Below, one piece after another: positions 10,290-17,255 of a DNA stretch of 64,000 nucleotides. Source of the DNA: a virus (Duplodnaviria; Caudoviricetes); IMG/VR virus record IMGVR_UViG_3300005805_003857, positions 1 to 64,000 of that record; one strand, given 5' to 3'. Numbering within the stretch: the stretch's first letter is position 1; each line of letters starts with the position of its first letter. The position numbers and the translations under genes are program-made. A model generated the notes under the pieces. The model did not search any database and was not told the DNA's origin. It worked only from the letters and a program-made list of their open reading frames with translations.

Positions 10290-13200
10290 ATGTTAATGAG
10301 AGATGTATTTTATTACGGTAAAAAACCGAATGCCCACCCAAGAGAGCAACACGCAATTGATTTAGCTAATGCTAGACAACAATCTACCACAGAACATTTT
10401 TGGATAATCAACGAACTATGTGATTATCGAAATTTTGACTGGGACTTTGATTTTGATTTCTTACCCGATGAAGATGTATGGGCACAAGAACATAACAATG
10501 TATGGCCTAGTCAGCATCAAAAAGATAGCGGCACTTGGTTATGTAACACAGATAATACACACGCATTAACAATCTACCGTAATGATGTAGAACCGGTGAT
10601 TCGCCGTAGAGAAAAATCAGACGCTTGGATATTAGTTGACTTGATTGATGAAACTAAGTTTGATTTATCATGGCATCCAGACCCAACGGATCCTCCATTC
10701 ATTTACAAATGGGGTAGTAAGTTTATACCAGCACAAGTTCAAGCCTGTTTAGAATATCATACTCCTAAGGCTACTCAAGTGAAGTACATGGATCAGAATA
10801 TTGAACTATTACCTAACATTGAATGCTGGAAAGAATATTATTCAATTGATAAAACTACATTTGATTTGTCATGGCGCCCCGACCCAACAAGTCCACCTTA
10901 TATCTATGTATGGGGTAATAAATTTGTATTCGGAGAAGTAGCACCCACTCTTGAATACACTGTACCAGGCGCAACACAACGAAAGTACATGCCAGATTTA
11001 TTGACATTATTACCCACTACAGAACATTGGGTTACACATGAAGATGTTATTGATTTTGACTATTGTTGGATTCCTAATCCAAGAGATCCGGCATACATTT
11101 ATGTGTGGGGTAACAAGTGGATTCCCGGAGAATTAAAATCAACAATTGAATACCACGTAGATGGTGCTACTGAGTACAAGTATATGGACAATGTTGAAGT
11201 TAAGCCCGAATGGGACAGATGGAATATAGTTATTCCTGTCGATAAAACTACATTTGATTTTACATGGAGACCAGATCCAACTAGCCCTCCATACATATAC
11301 GTATGGGGTAATAAATTTCACCCAGCCGAAGAAAAACCCACAGTTGAATATCATGTGCCTAGTGCTACTGAATACAAGTACATGGGTATTGTTGATTTAG
11401 CACCTGAATGGGACAGATGGAATATAATAATCCCTATTGACATGAATAGTTTTGATTTTAGGTGGAGACCTGATCCCAATCTATATGAACCCCCTATGAT
11501 ATATGTCTTTGGCAACAAGTGGAATGATAGCGCAACTGAGCCAACAATAGAGTATGTTGTGCCTGGTGCCACTGTTAAAAAATATATGGACTATCCTCTT
11601 GCTATACCTAAGATTGATATATCATTGTGGACAGTAAGCAACAAAGAAGATTTAAACACTTTTGATTTTACATGGAGACCCAATCCACATAGTCCGCCTC
11701 AAATATATCAATGGGCTGATAACGGTCCTCGCTATACTATGCCTGATGCGACCGAAGTTGTGTTTATGGAACGCATAATAGAAACCCGTAACGCAGTAGT
11801 CAACCGTTATAAAATTAAAACAACACTTGAAGATTTGATACTAGAACACCCAGAAGAAGTGTTCTGGGCTATTAACCCTGACTTAAGTTACAGTAGGTTT
11901 GATTTCAACTGGAGACCTAACGAAGAAAACTTCAGACACATAAACGTATTTGGTAACGAATATAGTAAGAACACACAAACTTATTATGTTAACGCACCAT
12001 TGTACATGATGGGTCATCGTGAGTTTAACTATGTTGAGGATCAGAAAGTTGAAGTTGATAGTAACTTGAGCATGTTCTTTGTTGACAAGAGCAACATAGA
12101 AAGCAAATATCGATTTGAAGAATTACAAAAACGTTATCCCAAAATTCAAAAGACACGTTACTTGAATAGTTGGGTTGACACTATTAATCGTTGTATCAAT
12201 AAATCTGAAACAGAATTATGCTGGATATTGAACAGTGAACTAGATTACACCGGTTTCACATTTGATTACTATCCTAGCCCATGGCAACAAAAAATGGTAC
12301 ACGTGTTTGGCACACAATGGAGTCACTGGGGAACTACATTCATGGTTAACAAAGAATCATTTCCCGAAGATACAAAGTATGTAAAAATTATAGAACACTT
12401 GAATAACCTCAATTTTGTTAAAACAAAAAGGGCATTTGCAAGCAATTGTATATATGATGTGTACTTGATTGACTACGGCAACGACAATACAGCTAACATT
12501 ACTTCATTAATTGAAAACAAAACAAAGAAGAATGTCTACACCATTGAGTATGCTGGAGATTATTTGTCTACATTGAAAAATATGTTGTATGAGTTAGGTA
12601 TCAAAAAGGATCACTATATTTGGGTTTGTAGTTCAATATGTGATTATACACGATTTGACTTCACATACATTTGTGATCCCTTCTCATTGGAACAGTTACA
12701 TGTATTCCCTAGTGATAAACAAAAATACGGGGACACATTCTTTATAAATGTAAACCGATTACGTACATTGGTTGAAGATTTAGATACGCTAGAGAATATT
12801 GATAAGATTAACTTCAATCAACATCAGCAAGTAAAACGTTTACCTGCTCCTAGCTTTATAACTGAAGGTGACACGCATGTCTCTGTTACTAATACTGATT
12901 TTGATTGGCCTTATGCTACATTCATTACAGCAGACAATAAAGAAATAAAAGTTGTTGACAATGAACCAATTAGCTTATGGTCAAAAGAATCTAAGAACAT
13001 ACTAATTACTAGTACAGGTGGAACACATATTGTTGTTCCCAAAGAAGCCAAAGAGTATGTCAACAATGAATTGTATGATTACCCATACATTGCTAAATCT
13101 AATAAATTAGCAACATCCCAGCCACTAGATATAGTCTTCCTAAGCAACGGTGAAACTGGAGCTGATGAGAATTATGAACACTTACTGAAAGTGACTAAGG

Positions 13201-13793
13201 GATTACCTAATAGAGTTGTTAGAGTTGATGGTGTCAATGGTCGTGTAGCAGCCTATCATGCCGCAGCAGAAGCAAGTAACACCCCTTGGATGTTTACTGT
13301 ATTTGCCAAGTTAAAAGTCAATCAGAAATTTGATTTCTCATGGCAACCAGATAGATTACAAGTTCCTAAGCATTACATTTTCTACGCAAGTAACCCAGTC
13401 AATGGTTTAGTATATGGTCACCAAGCTATGATTGCGTACAACAAACAGATTACATTAAATAATATGGGTAAAGGATTAGACTTTACATTGGATAGTGAAC
13501 ACGAAGTTGTTGAATTAAATAGTGGTGTAGCAAGATACAACACTGACGAATTTAGCACATGGCGCACTAGCTTTCGTGAAGTAATTAAATTGAAGCTAGA
13601 TGATAGCCCGGTAAGCAGAGACAGGCTGAAAACATGGTCAACAGTGGGTGTAGGTGACTTTGCCCAATATAGCATTCAAGGTGCCAAAGATGCTGTAGAA
13701 TACTATGACGAAGTTAGCGGTGACATTGATAAACTTAAATTAAGTTACGAATGGGCATGGCTTCAATCAAAATTTAATATCTTGACTAAATAA
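10290..13793 (+). CDS. 1167-aa repeat protein with C-terminal glycosyltransferase-like domain
   Basis: Tandem FDFxWRPDPxxPxYIYVWG units; C-terminal DIVFLSNGE...VDGVNG...HAAA...NPVNGLVYG...WRTSFRE resembles phage GT-A-like proteins. Confidence 0.6.
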   Translation: MLMRDVFYYGKKPNAHPREQHAIDLANARQQSTTEHFWIINELCDYRNFDWDFDFDFLPDEDVWAQEHNNVWPSQHQKDSGTWLCNTDNTHALTIYRNDVEPVIRRREKSDAWILVDLIDETKFDLSWHPDPTDPPFIYKWGSKFIPAQVQACLEYHTPKATQVKYMDQNIELLPNIECWKEYYSIDKTTFDLSWRPDPTSPPYIYVWGNKFVFGEVAPTLEYTVPGATQRKYMPDLLTLLPTTEHWVTHEDVIDFDYCWIPNPRDPAYIYVWGNKWIPGELKSTIEYHVDGATEYKYMDNVEVKPEWDRWNIVIPVDKTTFDFTWRPDPTSPPYIYVWGNKFHPAEEKPTVEYHVPSATEYKYMGIVDLAPEWDRWNIIIPIDMNSFDFRWRPDPNLYEPPMIYVFGNKWNDSATEPTIEYVVPGATVKKYMDYPLAIPKIDISLWTVSNKEDLNTFDFTWRPNPHSPPQIYQWADNGPRYTMPDATEVVFMERIIETRNAVVNRYKIKTTLEDLILEHPEEVFWAINPDLSYSRFDFNWRPNEENFRHINVFGNEYSKNTQTYYVNAPLYMMGHREFNYVEDQKVEVDSNLSMFFVDKSNIESKYRFEELQKRYPKIQKTRYLNSWVDTINRCINKSETELCWILNSELDYTGFTFDYYPSPWQQKMVHVFGTQWSHWGTTFMVNKESFPEDTKYVKIIEHLNNLNFVKTKRAFASNCIYDVYLIDYGNDNTANITSLIENKTKKNVYTIEYAGDYLSTLKNMLYELGIKKDHYIWVCSSICDYTRFDFTYICDPFSLEQLHVFPSDKQKYGDTFFINVNRLRTLVEDLDTLENIDKINFNQHQQVKRLPAPSFITEGDTHVSVTNTDFDWPYATFITADNKEIKVVDNEPISLWSKESKNILITSTGGTHIVVPKEAKEYVNNELYDYPYIAKSNKLATSQPLDIVFLSNGETGADENYEHLLKVTKGLPNRVVRVDGVNGRVAAYHAAAEASNTPWMFTVFAKLKVNQKFDFSWQPDRLQVPKHYIFYASNPVNGLVYGHQAMIAYNKQITLNNMGKGLDFTLDSEHEVVELNSGVARYNTDEFSTWRTSFREVIKLKLDDSPVSRDRLKTWSTVGVGDFAQYSIQGAKDAVEYYDEVSGDIDKLKLSYEWAWLQSKFNILTK
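10620..11760 (+). repeat. Five full and one partial ~62-66 aa tandem repeats within the 1167-aa protein
   Basis: W..IDKTTFDFxWRPDPTSPPYIYVWGNK..P...PT.EY.VPGAT..KYM visible repeatedly. Confidence 0.9.
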
Positions 13794-14514: not shown

Positions 14515-14543
14515 TTGCAATCAACTATGTGTTATCGTATAAT
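14515..14543 (+). promoter_or_regulatory. Sigma70-type promoter of the tmRNA locus
   Basis: TTGCAA-17 nt-TATAAT; inverted repeat ATAGTTG-caat-CAACTAT (14511-14528) overlaps the -35. Confidence 0.85.
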
Positions 14544-14549
14544 TTAAGT

Positions 14550-14614
14550 TAAGACTGTATGAAGTAGACAGAAAAGGATTCAAGACCCGGGGGCAGTTCC
14601 CGGCAGGTCCACCA
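14550..14614 (+). ncRNA. ssrA: Two-piece (circularly permuted) tmRNA, acceptor piece
   Basis: GAC-CCGGG-GGCAGTT-CCCGG-CAGGTCC-ACCA is T arm + 3' acceptor strand + CCA; GACTGT and GATTCAA pair with ACAGTC and TTGGGTC of the downstream piece (P2). 5' end approximate. Confidence 0.92.
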
Positions 14615-14626
14615 TAAGGAAGTTTG

Positions 14627-14821
14627 ATGAAAATTTGTGTAAAGACAACAGCCGGTGAAGTTATTCCAATTATCTCTGCTACTAAATTTCAAGATGTGGG
14701 CATTTTAGTTCGCACTGAAAGAGAAGTCAGCCAAGGTAGTTGGATGTTTAAGTTCGTAGGCGGACCAAACGATTTTTACACAATGTTTTGTGATGAACAA
14801 GGTAAAGAAGTTTTCTTATGA
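14627..14821 (+). CDS. 64-aa protein encoded in the tmRNA intervening segment
   Basis: AAGGA SD at 14616-14620, ATG at 14627, TGA 1 nt before the mature 5' G; fills almost the whole 208-nt intervening segment. Confidence 0.65.
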   Translation: MKICVKTTAGEVIPIISATKFQDVGILVRTEREVSQGSWMFKFVGGPNDFYTMFCDEQGKEVFL

Positions 14822-14822
14822 T

Positions 14823-15070
14823 GGGCCTGACATAGATATCGATTGGGTCACAAGTATTGAAATGGACAGTCCGGCAATGTAGAAGCCGTTAGGATTGGGG
14901 GCAAAGTGTAGTCGCTATACCCATAGTATAGAAAGACGCTCTACTCGGTCGAAGACACAAAACCTTTATCTGCAAACGATGAAACATATCTATTGGCTGC
15001 AAACGCCTGATAGCGAAGTAGGTTTTACTTTGTAAAAGAAAAAACCCTTGTAGGAGCTTCGGCTCCTACT
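14823..15070 (+). ncRNA. ssrA: Two-piece tmRNA, coding piece
   Basis: GGGCCTG pairs with CAGGTCC giving G3.U70; D-loop-like ACATAGATATCGA; P2 strand; PK1-like CGGC/GCCG; U(-5)A(-4) before resume codon; tag ORF; 3' terminator. 3' end approximate. Confidence 0.92.
14972..15010 (+). other. tmRNA tag reading frame ANDETYLLAANA*
   Basis: gca aac gat gaa aca tat cta ttg gct gca aac gcc tga; resembles the canonical ANDENYALAA. Confidence 0.9.
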
Positions 15071-15075
15071 TGTTT
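15050..15075 (+). terminator. Intrinsic terminator after tmRNA
   Basis: GTAGGAGC-TTCG-GCTCCTAC followed by TTGTTT. Confidence 0.85.
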
Positions 15076-16151: not shown

Positions 16152-17255
16152 ATGGCATCGCAACTCTCTGACAATCTGACAATCACCTCTGTTCAAGCAC
16201 GTAAGGCATTGCTTACCGCATTCAAATCTAAACGACCTGTTTTCTTGTGGGGTCCTCCCGGCATCGGTAAGAGTGAAGTTGTTGAGGAAATCACAAACGA
16301 ACTCGGCGGTCTGATGATTGACTTGCGTATGGCACAGATGGAGCCTACTGACATTCGTGGTATCCCGTTCTACAACAAAGACAAAAACTTGATGGAGTTT
16401 GCCCCTCCCGGCGACTTGCCTAACGCTGAACAATCATCACAGTACCCAATCGTTGTGTTGTTTCTTGATGAAATGAACTCGGCACCCCCAGCAGTGCAGG
16501 CTGCAGGTTATCAGTTGATTCTTAACCGTCGTATCGGTAAGTACATGTTGCCTGATAACGTTGTTATCGTTGCAGCCGGTAACCGAGATAGTGACAAGGG
16601 TGTGACTTATCGCATGCCGATGCCCCTTGCTAATCGTTTCGTTCACTTGGAAATGCGCCCTGACTTTACATCTTGGCAGAACTGGGCTGTGAACAAAGGC
16701 ATTCACAAAGACGTGGTTGGTTACTTGTCTTTTGCTAAACAAGACTTGTACGACTTTGATAGTAAGTCTGCATCACGTGCGTTTGCTACACCTCGTTCAT
16801 GGTGTTTCGTGTCTGACTTGCTGAATGATGAGGACAATACTGACACTGATACACTGTTCAACTTGGTTGCAGGTGCAGTTGGTGAAGGTCTTGCAGTTAA
16901 GTTTGCGGCACACCGCAAGATTGCAGGTAAGATGCCCGAACCTTCTGATATCTTGTCAGGTAAAGTTAAGGACCTTGCAGTCAAGGAAATTTCAGCAATG
17001 TACTCATTGACTATTTCAATGTGCTATGAATTGCGTGATGCACTTGAAAACAAGAAAGTGGATAGTAAGAAGTTCCACGAAATGGCTGACAACTTCTTTA
17101 ACTACATCATGGCAAACTTTGAGACTGAGTTGGTTGTGATGGGTGCAAAGATTGCACTTAAGACTTACAAGTTGCCGATCGAACCTTCACAGTTGAAAAA
17201 CTTTGACGAATTCCACAAGAAGTACGGTAAGTACATCGTACAAGCAGGAGAGTGA
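16152..17255 (+). CDS. MoxR-like AAA+ ATPase
   Basis: Walker A GPPGIGKS, Walker B FLDE, AAGN, NRF. Confidence 0.9.
   Translation: MASQLSDNLTITSVQARKALLTAFKSKRPVFLWGPPGIGKSEVVEEITNELGGLMIDLRMAQMEPTDIRGIPFYNKDKNLMEFAPPGDLPNAEQSSQYPIVVLFLDEMNSAPPAVQAAGYQLILNRRIGKYMLPDNVVIVAAGNRDSDKGVTYRMPMPLANRFVHLEMRPDFTSWQNWAVNKGIHKDVVGYLSFAKQDLYDFDSKSASRAFATPRSWCFVSDLLNDEDNTDTDTLFNLVAGAVGEGLAVKFAAHRKIAGKMPEPSDILSGKVKDLAVKEISAMYSLTISMCYELRDALENKKVDSKKFHEMADNFFNYIMANFETELVVMGAKIALKTYKLPIEPSQLKNFDEFHKKYGKYIVQAGE

Follow-up and report, generated by a model that had tools for sequence, protein, structure and literature searches.

A conserved small-protein gene in the spacer of a permuted phage tmRNA gene, a probable cassette slot

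The window analyzed here, a 64-kb stretch of an 88-kb IMG/VR virus record that is about 21% complete (IMGVR_UViG_3300005805_003857), encodes a transfer-messenger RNA (tmRNA) of permuted layout, in which the acceptor piece with its CCA end precedes the coding piece and a 208-nt spacer separates the two. This spacer contains a 64-codon open reading frame (ORF), P0001, which, judged by its conservation among homologous loci, is a genuine protein gene under selection. A survey of related tmRNA genes suggests, furthermore, that the spacer probably serves as a slot in which small genes are housed and exchanged.

The tmRNA gene and the reading frame in its spacer

The tmRNA gene corresponds to a match to the Rfam family RF04321 (tmRNA_permuted) at 14553–15010 on the plus strand, which scores 77.8 bits against a cut-off of 47, covers model positions 1–213 of 213, and is the only gathering-level Rfam match in the window. 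Its relatives score 67–137 bits with the same model. ARAGORN made no tmRNA or tRNA call in the window, probably because the long spacer defeats this tool, and the tmRNA region gave no blastn match in GenBank phages. We assembled 19 distinct loci carrying the same protein gene, which yielded 18 distinct coding sequences, referred to below as alleles. The features of the locus, all on the plus strand, are as follows.

14515–14543 (+): putative sigma-70-like promoter, TTGCAA-17-TATAAT, from a consensus scan (10 of 12 matches), approximately 10 nt upstream of the Rfam match
14553–14614 (+): acceptor piece with T arm, 3' acceptor strand CAGGTCC, A73 and encoded CCA (RF04321 model positions 1–63)
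14613–14625 (+): 5' strand of the closing stem, including the Shine-Dalgarno sequence AAGGAAG at 14616–14622 (minimum free energy (MFE) structure of the precursor, 100% pairing in 18 alleles, pair probabilities)
14615–14822 (+): 208-nt spacer (intervening sequence), not part of the mature tmRNA (aligned by Rfam as an insert that separates CCA from G1)
14627–14821 (+): 64-codon protein gene P0001 (translation, homologues of 64 residues, ratio of nonsynonymous to synonymous substitution rates (dN/dS) of 0.15, AlphaFold2 (AF2) predicted local distance difference test score (pLDDT) of 94)
14808–14822 (+): 3' strand of the closing stem, comprising the last four codons, UGA (14819–14821) and U-1 (14822) (MFE structure, allele pairing, pair probabilities)
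14823–15010 (+): coding piece with 5' acceptor strand GGGCCUG and tag frame at 14972–15010 (ANDETYLLAANA, then stop) (RF04321 model positions 87–213)
15050–15075 (+): putative terminator, a hairpin (15050–15069) of 8 bp with 5 GC pairs followed by a T-rich tail (consensus scan)

Read from the sequence and the Rfam alignment, A73 is nucleotide 14611, the CCA occupies 14612–14614, and the mature G1 is 14823. Consistent with the permuted order, in which CCA lies upstream of the 5' strand, GGGCCUG (14823–14829) pairs with CAGGUCC (14604–14610) to form the tRNA-Ala-like acceptor stem; G3:U70 (the third pair, U:G) is present in 18 of 18 alleles, while the sixth acceptor pair covaries (A-U, U-A, C-G). 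The tag frame begins with the alanine resume codon GCA at 14972 and ends with a TGA stop at 15008–15010.

Within the spacer, the Shine-Dalgarno sequence AAGGAAG (14616–14622) is followed by an ATG at 14627, 64 sense codons and a TGA at 14819–14821. The spacer ends are complementary: CATAAGGAAG (14613–14622) matches TTTTCTTATG (14811–14820), U-1 (14822) lies opposite A73, and three more pairs can be added between 14623–14625 and 14808–14810. Several of these positions had been proposed in an original prediction made from the sequence alone, and upon re-reading the sequence together with the RF04321 alignment we found that all the coordinates given there, among them those of the CCA, the 208-nt spacer and G1, hold. 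The pairing of the spacer ends that was said to extend the acceptor stem is exact and is kept in every allele, and the coordinates bear out that the Shine-Dalgarno sequence sits inside the 5' strand of this stem, while the stop codon overlaps its 3' strand.

In the MFE structure of the precursor, the acceptor stem, the A73:U-1 pair, a C74/A-2 mismatch and 13 more pairs make up one continuous helix, in which the UGAU leader faces A76, C75, C74 (the mismatch) and A73; in the folding model of the primary transcript, the first nine stem pairs have probabilities of 0.87–1.0. All 21 pairs of the composite helix (acceptor plus spacer stem) are formed in 18 of 18 distinct alleles, as against 40–59% once the partner strand is slid by 1–3 columns, and the changes seen in the stem among these alleles are limited to G-U to G-C, U-G to U-A, and one doubly compensated acceptor pair.

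The placement of the ORF between the stem strands is equally constant. The spacer is 207–208 nt long in 18 of 19 alleles, the distance from CCA to ATG is 11–12 nt across the 19 loci, with the exception of one allele in which a 10-nt duplication extends it to 22 nt, and the distance from the stop codon to G1 is exactly 1 nt in all 19. Two distant members of the family share this arrangement: L030, which encodes 70 residues, has the same junction sequences and a stop codon 1 nt from G1, and L033 has a different acceptor stem (GGGGGUG) together with a compensatory U-A to A-U change beside the CCA in its spacer ends, the stop codon still being 1 nt from G1.

A conserved protein gene and its predicted fold

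A search of 5.8 billion proteins returned eight clusters of homologues, each exactly 64 residues long and 67–97% identical to P0001; further homologues, with identities down to 61%, were found in viral and metagenome contigs. All of these close homologues (61–97% identity) fall within RF04321 matches. Profile searching of 1.8 billion representatives brought in four more homologues, which are only distantly related (31–59% identity). Searches for the protein in the genomes of 185,579 bacterial and archaeal species and, by tblastn, in GenBank phage records yielded no relative.

Comparison across homologous phage ssrA loci, named in the original prediction as a check on the ORF along with dN/dS, upheld the frame in all 18 alleles, each of 64 codons. 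These coding sequences contain neither indels nor stop codons, variable sites are distributed over codon positions 1, 2 and 3 as 25, 18 and 43, and the median pairwise dN/dS is 0.15.

We also considered the alternative that the frame is not translated, the spacer being kept as a structured RNA for tmRNA processing and the ORF being incidental. The spacer alone folds somewhat better than its shuffles (z = -2.6), and synonymous variation is low in the last 17 codons (entropy of 0.15 versus 0.55 elsewhere in the 18 alleles), as would be expected of such an RNA. However, the codon-position pattern and the dN/dS, the retention of frame and length at 31–61% identity, the occurrence of free-standing coding homologues in operons with overlapping start and stop codons, the pLDDT of 94 obtained once distant homologues were included, and the presence of known protein families in the same slot of other tmRNAs all speak for translation, and a predicted inner helix shows no compensatory changes. 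We therefore regard an untranslated frame as extremely improbable. The low synonymous variation in codons 59–65 is accounted for by the closing stem, which lies there. Codons 49–58 (14771–14800) are outside the closing stem, and their synonymous sites are nearly invariant in the 18 alleles; no tested structure accounts for them. The inner helix, an MFE prediction that pairs codons 3–6 with codons 50–53, was dropped, as it is not kept in L020, L028 and L033.

The protein has no family in Pfam, PHROGs, NCBIfam or PADLOC, and the ESM Atlas gave no usable hit. An AF2 model built with distant homologues, which consists of five strands and one short helix, reached a pLDDT of 94 and a predicted template modelling score (pTM) of 0.79; an earlier run using 14 close homologues (pLDDT 58.6) was set aside. 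The predicted fold is a small SH3-like beta-barrel. The best VIA match had a Z of 3.9 (root-mean-square deviation 2.8 Å, 55 residues), with SH3, Tudor, KOW and integrase C-terminal domains tied at Z 2.8–3.9, and Foldseek searches of PDB and BFVD returned insignificant SH3-, Tudor-, KOW- and Hfq-like matches (E-values of 0.2 or higher).

The spacer as a probable cassette slot in related tmRNAs

Pattern scans of IMG/VR for the same acceptor stem, carried out in five spacer-length ranges and filtered for a T arm and acceptor complementarity, identified at least 174 distinct permuted tmRNA candidates with spacers of 1–31 and 152–272 nt, and at least 81 further candidates with spacers of 92–122 nt. 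An ORF filled at least 80% of the spacer in 95 of 135 distinct spacers of 150–275 nt (70%), compared with 1.3% of composition-matched shuffled cores; on the reverse strand, used as a control, only two of the 135 long spacers were filled. The near-complete filling of the 208-nt spacer by the 64-residue ORF, as noted at the outset, is thus confirmed and, by the shuffles of long spacers, beyond chance.

The 105 ORFs of at least 30 codons found in these spacers fall into 42 unrelated families. Among them are known proteins: a thioredoxin (PF00085, 75 bits, with a CGPC motif and the ending ...KVSL) at L365:213–464 (-), a DUF2061 membrane protein at L219:3295–3501 (-), and a PGDYG protein at L361:329–547 (+). 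The 215-nt spacer of L245 holds two tandem hydrophobic ORFs of 36 and then 25–30 residues, the second of which ends 13 nt before G1. Shorter spacers, of 92–122 nt, are ORF-filled in 21 of 81 cases among the matches listed (versus 9.6% of shuffles) and encode mostly hydrophobic peptides of 25–37 residues.

In 24 families the ORF ends at the UGA of the stem, 1 nt from G1, and this spacing is found in 73 of the 95 ORF-filled spacers; 13 of the 42 families have their stop codon 12–13 nt before G1, at the stem edge. Because the ORF runs into the stem and stops at its UGA, unrelated cassette proteins end in VSL, VFL or KSL. The stem itself is widespread: 136 of 174 related spacers among the matches listed end in TGAT, and in 114 distinct stems of related spacers positions 1–10 are paired at 86–96%, with several pair types at each position.

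Cassettes also vary on a constant backbone. Identical 45-nt acceptor pieces are combined with up to nine different cassette families, or with a short hairpin. In close relatives that carry no ORF, the spacer is a 25-nt hairpin (TAAG...TTTATGAT) with the same ends as in the window, and the acceptor piece that carries this hairpin matches that of L014, which has an ORF, at 100% identity. Since these ORF-less relatives share the spacer ends, we conclude that the stem is older than the gene and that the ORF lies in its loop. The suggestion in the original prediction that a gene had colonised a self-excising safe site is hence supported more strongly than it was proposed, by the 42 unrelated families, by ORF-less alleles on identical backbones and by free-standing homologues. 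Its premise that intervening segments are normally short and discarded stands for the bacterial tmRNAs described so far but fails in the present phage lineage, in which long ORF-filled spacers are common.

Forty of the 135 long spacers are not ORF-filled, and some of these, of 165–174 nt (e.g., L300, L307, L310, L324), have the stem ends TAAGGAAATTTGAT...TTTATGTT and no ORF of 18 or more codons; such spacers could be decayed cassettes or non-coding inserts. Unannotated permuted tmRNAs (77–109 bits) are also present in cultured phages, namely Xanthomonas phage X1 (L387, OQ427096, 121009–121337), phage Rb1 (L388) and Stenotrophomonas phage vB_Sm_QDWS359 (L389, ON331942). The spacers of L387 and L389 are stem-closed, approximately 105–125 nt long by eye, and end in TGAT without a long ORF. 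The tmRNA of QDWS359 is overlapped on the opposite strand by a coding sequence annotated as hypothetical, which is probably a mis-call. At L030:981–1355, a gene for a 124-residue RF-1-domain (ArfB-like ribosome-rescue) protein lies beside a cassette-bearing tmRNA and a tRNA array, so that two rescue functions are adjacent.

The spacer is better conserved than the tmRNA flanks, and its relationships conflict with theirs. The spacers of L021 and L022 are 100% identical while their T arms and tag regions differ, those of L006 and L007 are 98% identical on acceptor pieces that are 65% identical, and conversely L012 and L014 have acceptor pieces that are 98% identical with spacers that are 84% identical. 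Genes flanking the tmRNA differ between loci encoding an identical protein. Two homologues, P0011 (54% identity) and P0013, are free-standing, that is, not associated with a tmRNA, and reside in small-gene arrays in which the stop codon of one gene overlaps the start codon of the next; the gene adjoining P0011 in L032 is 73% identical to another cassette family, and the free-standing gene ends in TTATGA and is preceded by AAGG...TTTG...ATG. From these sequences we infer that cassettes may have been drawn from small-gene arrays through recombination at short homologies, and that they would now be exchanged through the conserved tmRNA flanks.

Several side observations bear on the same loci. At the 5' junction, L028 (274–330) contains 10 extra nt, the spacer of L268 starts with TAAGGAAAT twice, and a contig from an RNA library (metatranscriptome run X1) has approximately 110 nt between two copies of CCA-TAAGGAAGTTTGATGAA; these duplications may be scars of cassette exchange or tandem cassettes. 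The window tag, ANDETYLLAANA, adds Asn-Ala after the usual ...LAA end, resulting in an atypical ...ANA terminus, and tags vary widely among relatives with the same cassette, from ANDSQFALAA in L021 to a 22-residue alpha-type tag in L022. The tmRNA gene of the window is preceded by a gene (10290–13793) for a protein of 1167 residues that repeats motifs internally and matches no Pfam or PHROG family; another neighbor (16152–17255) encodes a MoxR/AAA ATPase (phrog_1297, E = 1e-99). Genes for SmpB and RF-1-domain proteins were sought in the 88-kb record and not found, which is only weakly informative as the record is a fragment; presumably, host SmpB serves the phage tmRNA.

The conflict between spacer and flank relationships, together with the far greater conservation of the spacer and its presence or absence on identical backbones, might be taken to indicate a selfish element of the homing type that spreads actively between tmRNA genes, as the endonuclease gene of an intron does. 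This is very unlikely, however, as P0001 matches neither a nuclease nor any other family in the four databases searched, is too small at 64 residues for known homing endonucleases, and has a predicted SH3-like fold; Rfam detects no group I intron or other ribozyme in the window, and passive recombination in the conserved flanks accounts for the mosaicism.

A different proposal gives the protein a dedicated role as partner or modulator of the tmRNA: co-produced with the RNA, it might for instance serve as a cofactor, chaperone the tRNA-like domain or inhibit host tmRNA-SmpB. The confinement of close homologues to tmRNA genes would agree with such a role, as would the predicted beta-barrel, which is common among RNA-binding proteins and gives weak matches (Z no higher than 3.9) to Hfq, Rof and KOW-type ribosomal proteins, and the ArfB-like gene adjoining another cassette locus. 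Against this stand the free-standing homologues that lack a tmRNA, the 41 other unrelated families in the slot, thioredoxin and membrane peptides among them, the close tmRNA relatives without any cassette, and the fact that the fold matches fall below significance. We consider a dedicated partner unlikely.

Proposed expression from the spacer and comparison with known systems

The reading that we favor, at a probability of roughly 70%, is a passive one: the spacer is a safe, co-transcribed slot for gene cassettes. The spacer loop would be discarded during tmRNA maturation and would therefore tolerate insertions, thereby offering a cassette site in a lineage of uncultured, mostly freshwater phages. 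The slot would supply the promoter (that of the tmRNA itself), a ribosome-binding site built into the 5' strand of the closing stem and, in most cassettes, the stop codon, provided by the UGA within the UGAU leader, the pairing partner of the ACCA end. As promoter-like and terminator-like sites bracket the acceptor piece, the spacer and the coding piece, co-transcription of the ORF with the tmRNA is the simplest reading of the sequence, and we infer it on that basis. A promoter-like site inside the gene (14794–14822, 9 of 12 matches) was dismissed, since its start would fall inside the acceptor strand. Translation would proceed from the precursor, from the released spacer RNA, or from both. 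Recombination in the conserved flanks, GGTCCACCA-TAAGGAAGTTTG on one side and TTATGAT-GGGCC on the other, would carry cassettes from one tmRNA gene to another, and the P0001 protein would act independently of the tmRNA, as one of the many small accessory (moron-like) genes of phages.

Several points weigh against this interpretation or limit its reach. According to the folding model, the ribosome-binding site is 95% paired in the primary transcript, and the stem would have to open before translation could be efficient. The scans detect only tmRNAs with a GGGCCNG/GGTCCACCA acceptor stem and cover spacers of 1–31, 92–122 and 152–272 nt, and family 1 is over-represented, since it was also gathered by protein search, which biases family sizes toward the query family. 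The structure searches yield no significant fold match for the modeled protein, and no function is drawn from them. Two metatranscriptome contigs, one of 809 nt containing the spacer at one mismatch inside another tmRNA backbone and one with a window-like backbone and a spacer of approximately 66 nt, cannot separate RNA from carried-over DNA or show transcript ends and are not used as evidence of expression.

The predicted pairing of the ribosome-binding site leads to a more elaborate possibility, which we hold only tentatively, namely that expression is coupled to processing. The closing stem would mask the ribosome-binding site in the precursor, and the RNase P cut at G1 together with 3' maturation at the CCA would strip off the coaxial acceptor stem and loosen it. 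Protein would be made only from the matured spacer RNA, whose stop codon, 1 nt from the new 3' end, would make it nearly a non-stop message on which release factor 2 competes with trans-translation. Protein output would then be tied to tmRNA activity, an arrangement that is compatible with the slot and would add a regulatory layer to it. One argument for this coupling is that the ribosomes on which tmRNA-SmpB acts have only a few nucleotides of mRNA on the 3' side of the P site. Others are the invariant 1-nt distance from stop codon to G1 in 19 alleles and two distant members, its prevalence among ORF-filled spacers (73 of 95), and the conservation of the stem with covariation. In the thermodynamic model, the probability that the Shine-Dalgarno sequence is unpaired rises from 0.05 in the primary transcript to 0.22 after the RNase P cut at G1 and to 0.37 in the excised spacer, the isolated closing stem having a stability of approximately -9.4 kcal/mol. 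These values plausibly fit, without demonstrating it, the suggestion of the original prediction that maturation could release or unmask a mini-mRNA.

Nevertheless, the accessibility figures are thermodynamic models only, and the geometry of a 1-nt stop and an in-stem Shine-Dalgarno sequence is not obligatory, because 13 of 42 families use their own stop codon, 12–13 nt before G1, and several have the Shine-Dalgarno sequence outside the stem. Spacers that carry no ORF have the same stem and UGAU end, so these features did not evolve for the ORF; since ORF-less spacers share them and a third of families use their own stop, we read the stem and its UGA as tmRNA-processing features that the cassettes exploit. 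The strongest form of coupling, in which the closing stem shuts the ribosome-binding site until RNase P and CCA maturation have acted and the product is split between normal release and tagging by the very tmRNA from which it derives, we consider doubtful. If true, the phage would have an intrinsic means of sensing trans-translation capacity or of feeding back on it, and mRNAs produced by tRNA-processing enzymes would form a new class.

On the favored reading of a passive slot, too, the consequences would be considerable. Spacers of tmRNAs have so far been treated as disposable linkers; if the ORF is expressed, the precursor of a stable RNA doubles as a messenger, and it would fall to RNase P and the 3' trimming enzymes to set where an mRNA starts and stops. 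The slot would give phages a compact route to gain and swap small accessory genes while leaving an essential RNA undisturbed, and its contents amount to a catalogue of at least 40 small phage proteins that are probably made early and abundantly. As for P0001 itself, what emerges is an orphan protein family that is conserved and has a confidently predicted fold. For annotation, the locus is a warning that RNA genes labelled "non-coding" can conceal genes and that forms with long spacers escape ARAGORN and similar tmRNA finders.

Two-piece tmRNAs are known in phages, chiefly aquatic ones, e.g., Methylophilales phage Melnitz (PMC9004378). The present gene resembles described permuted tmRNA genes (RF04321, RF01849, RF01850; Keiler, Shapiro and Williams 2000) in its order of acceptor piece with CCA, spacer, and coding piece from G1, in having G3:U70, A73, a T arm and a tag frame, and in a precursor that must be cut at both spacer ends. 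It differs in that the spacers described for those genes are non-coding, while the present one is mRNA-like, a cassette with both its ribosome-binding site and its stop codon inside the processing stem. A 2025 tmRNA database paper, covering 97,179 sequences in three gene forms, notes only a single tRNA gene, which it calls "a unique feature", and a single repetitive element in permuted spacers and mentions no protein gene there (PMC11915505). Full-text literature searches for tmRNA spacers with ORFs found no published description.

In the same database paper, the endonuclease genes reported for tmRNA are confined to T-loop group I introns (PMC11915505). Such homing-endonuclease genes are similar to P0001 in that a protein gene occupies a part of the RNA that is removed from the mature molecule, leaving the host gene functional. 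However, no ribozyme, splicing or ligation is involved here, the tmRNA halves stay separate, and no nuclease is encoded.

A second analogue is the ORF-bearing intervening sequence (IVS) of 23S rRNA genes, which encodes S23p in Coxiella and Leptospira. This is likewise a stem-closed segment in a stable-RNA gene that is excised without religation and carries an ORF; its presence is sporadic, it is regarded as a selfish or tolerated insert, and the S23p protein is reportedly not made (PMC4990558). The IVS lies in rRNA helix 45, is excised by RNase III and contains the single ORF family S23p, whereas the tmRNA slot holds at least 42 unrelated selected ORF families and has ends set by tRNA-type processing through RNase P and CCA maturation. 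P0001 matches no Pfam family, its model is all-beta with one short helix, and its host gene is a tmRNA, so that the IVS is an analogy only.

The third analogue is provided by the PeSL cassettes (early promoter plus stem-loop) of T4-type phages (PMC2839356, PMC4122927), in which short conserved stem-loop flanks surround diverse small ORFs that appear to be exchanged as modules by recombination. T4-like features are seen in the present phage. Cassettes may be exchanged here in a similar way, by analogy, but the flanks are the halves of a functional RNA gene and a processing stem instead of promoter-terminator motifs, each tmRNA gene has a single slot, and the RNA of the cassette would be excised from a stable-RNA precursor. 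In PeSL cassettes an early promoter and a stem-loop stand on both sides, while the only good promoter-like site at our locus is upstream of the whole gene.

The layout described here belongs to a known class of genes housed in the discarded parts of stable-RNA genes. It differs from all three analogues in combining tRNA-type excision without ligation, a ribosome-binding site and stop codon placed in the processing stem, and a slot that is common to dozens of unrelated selected genes.

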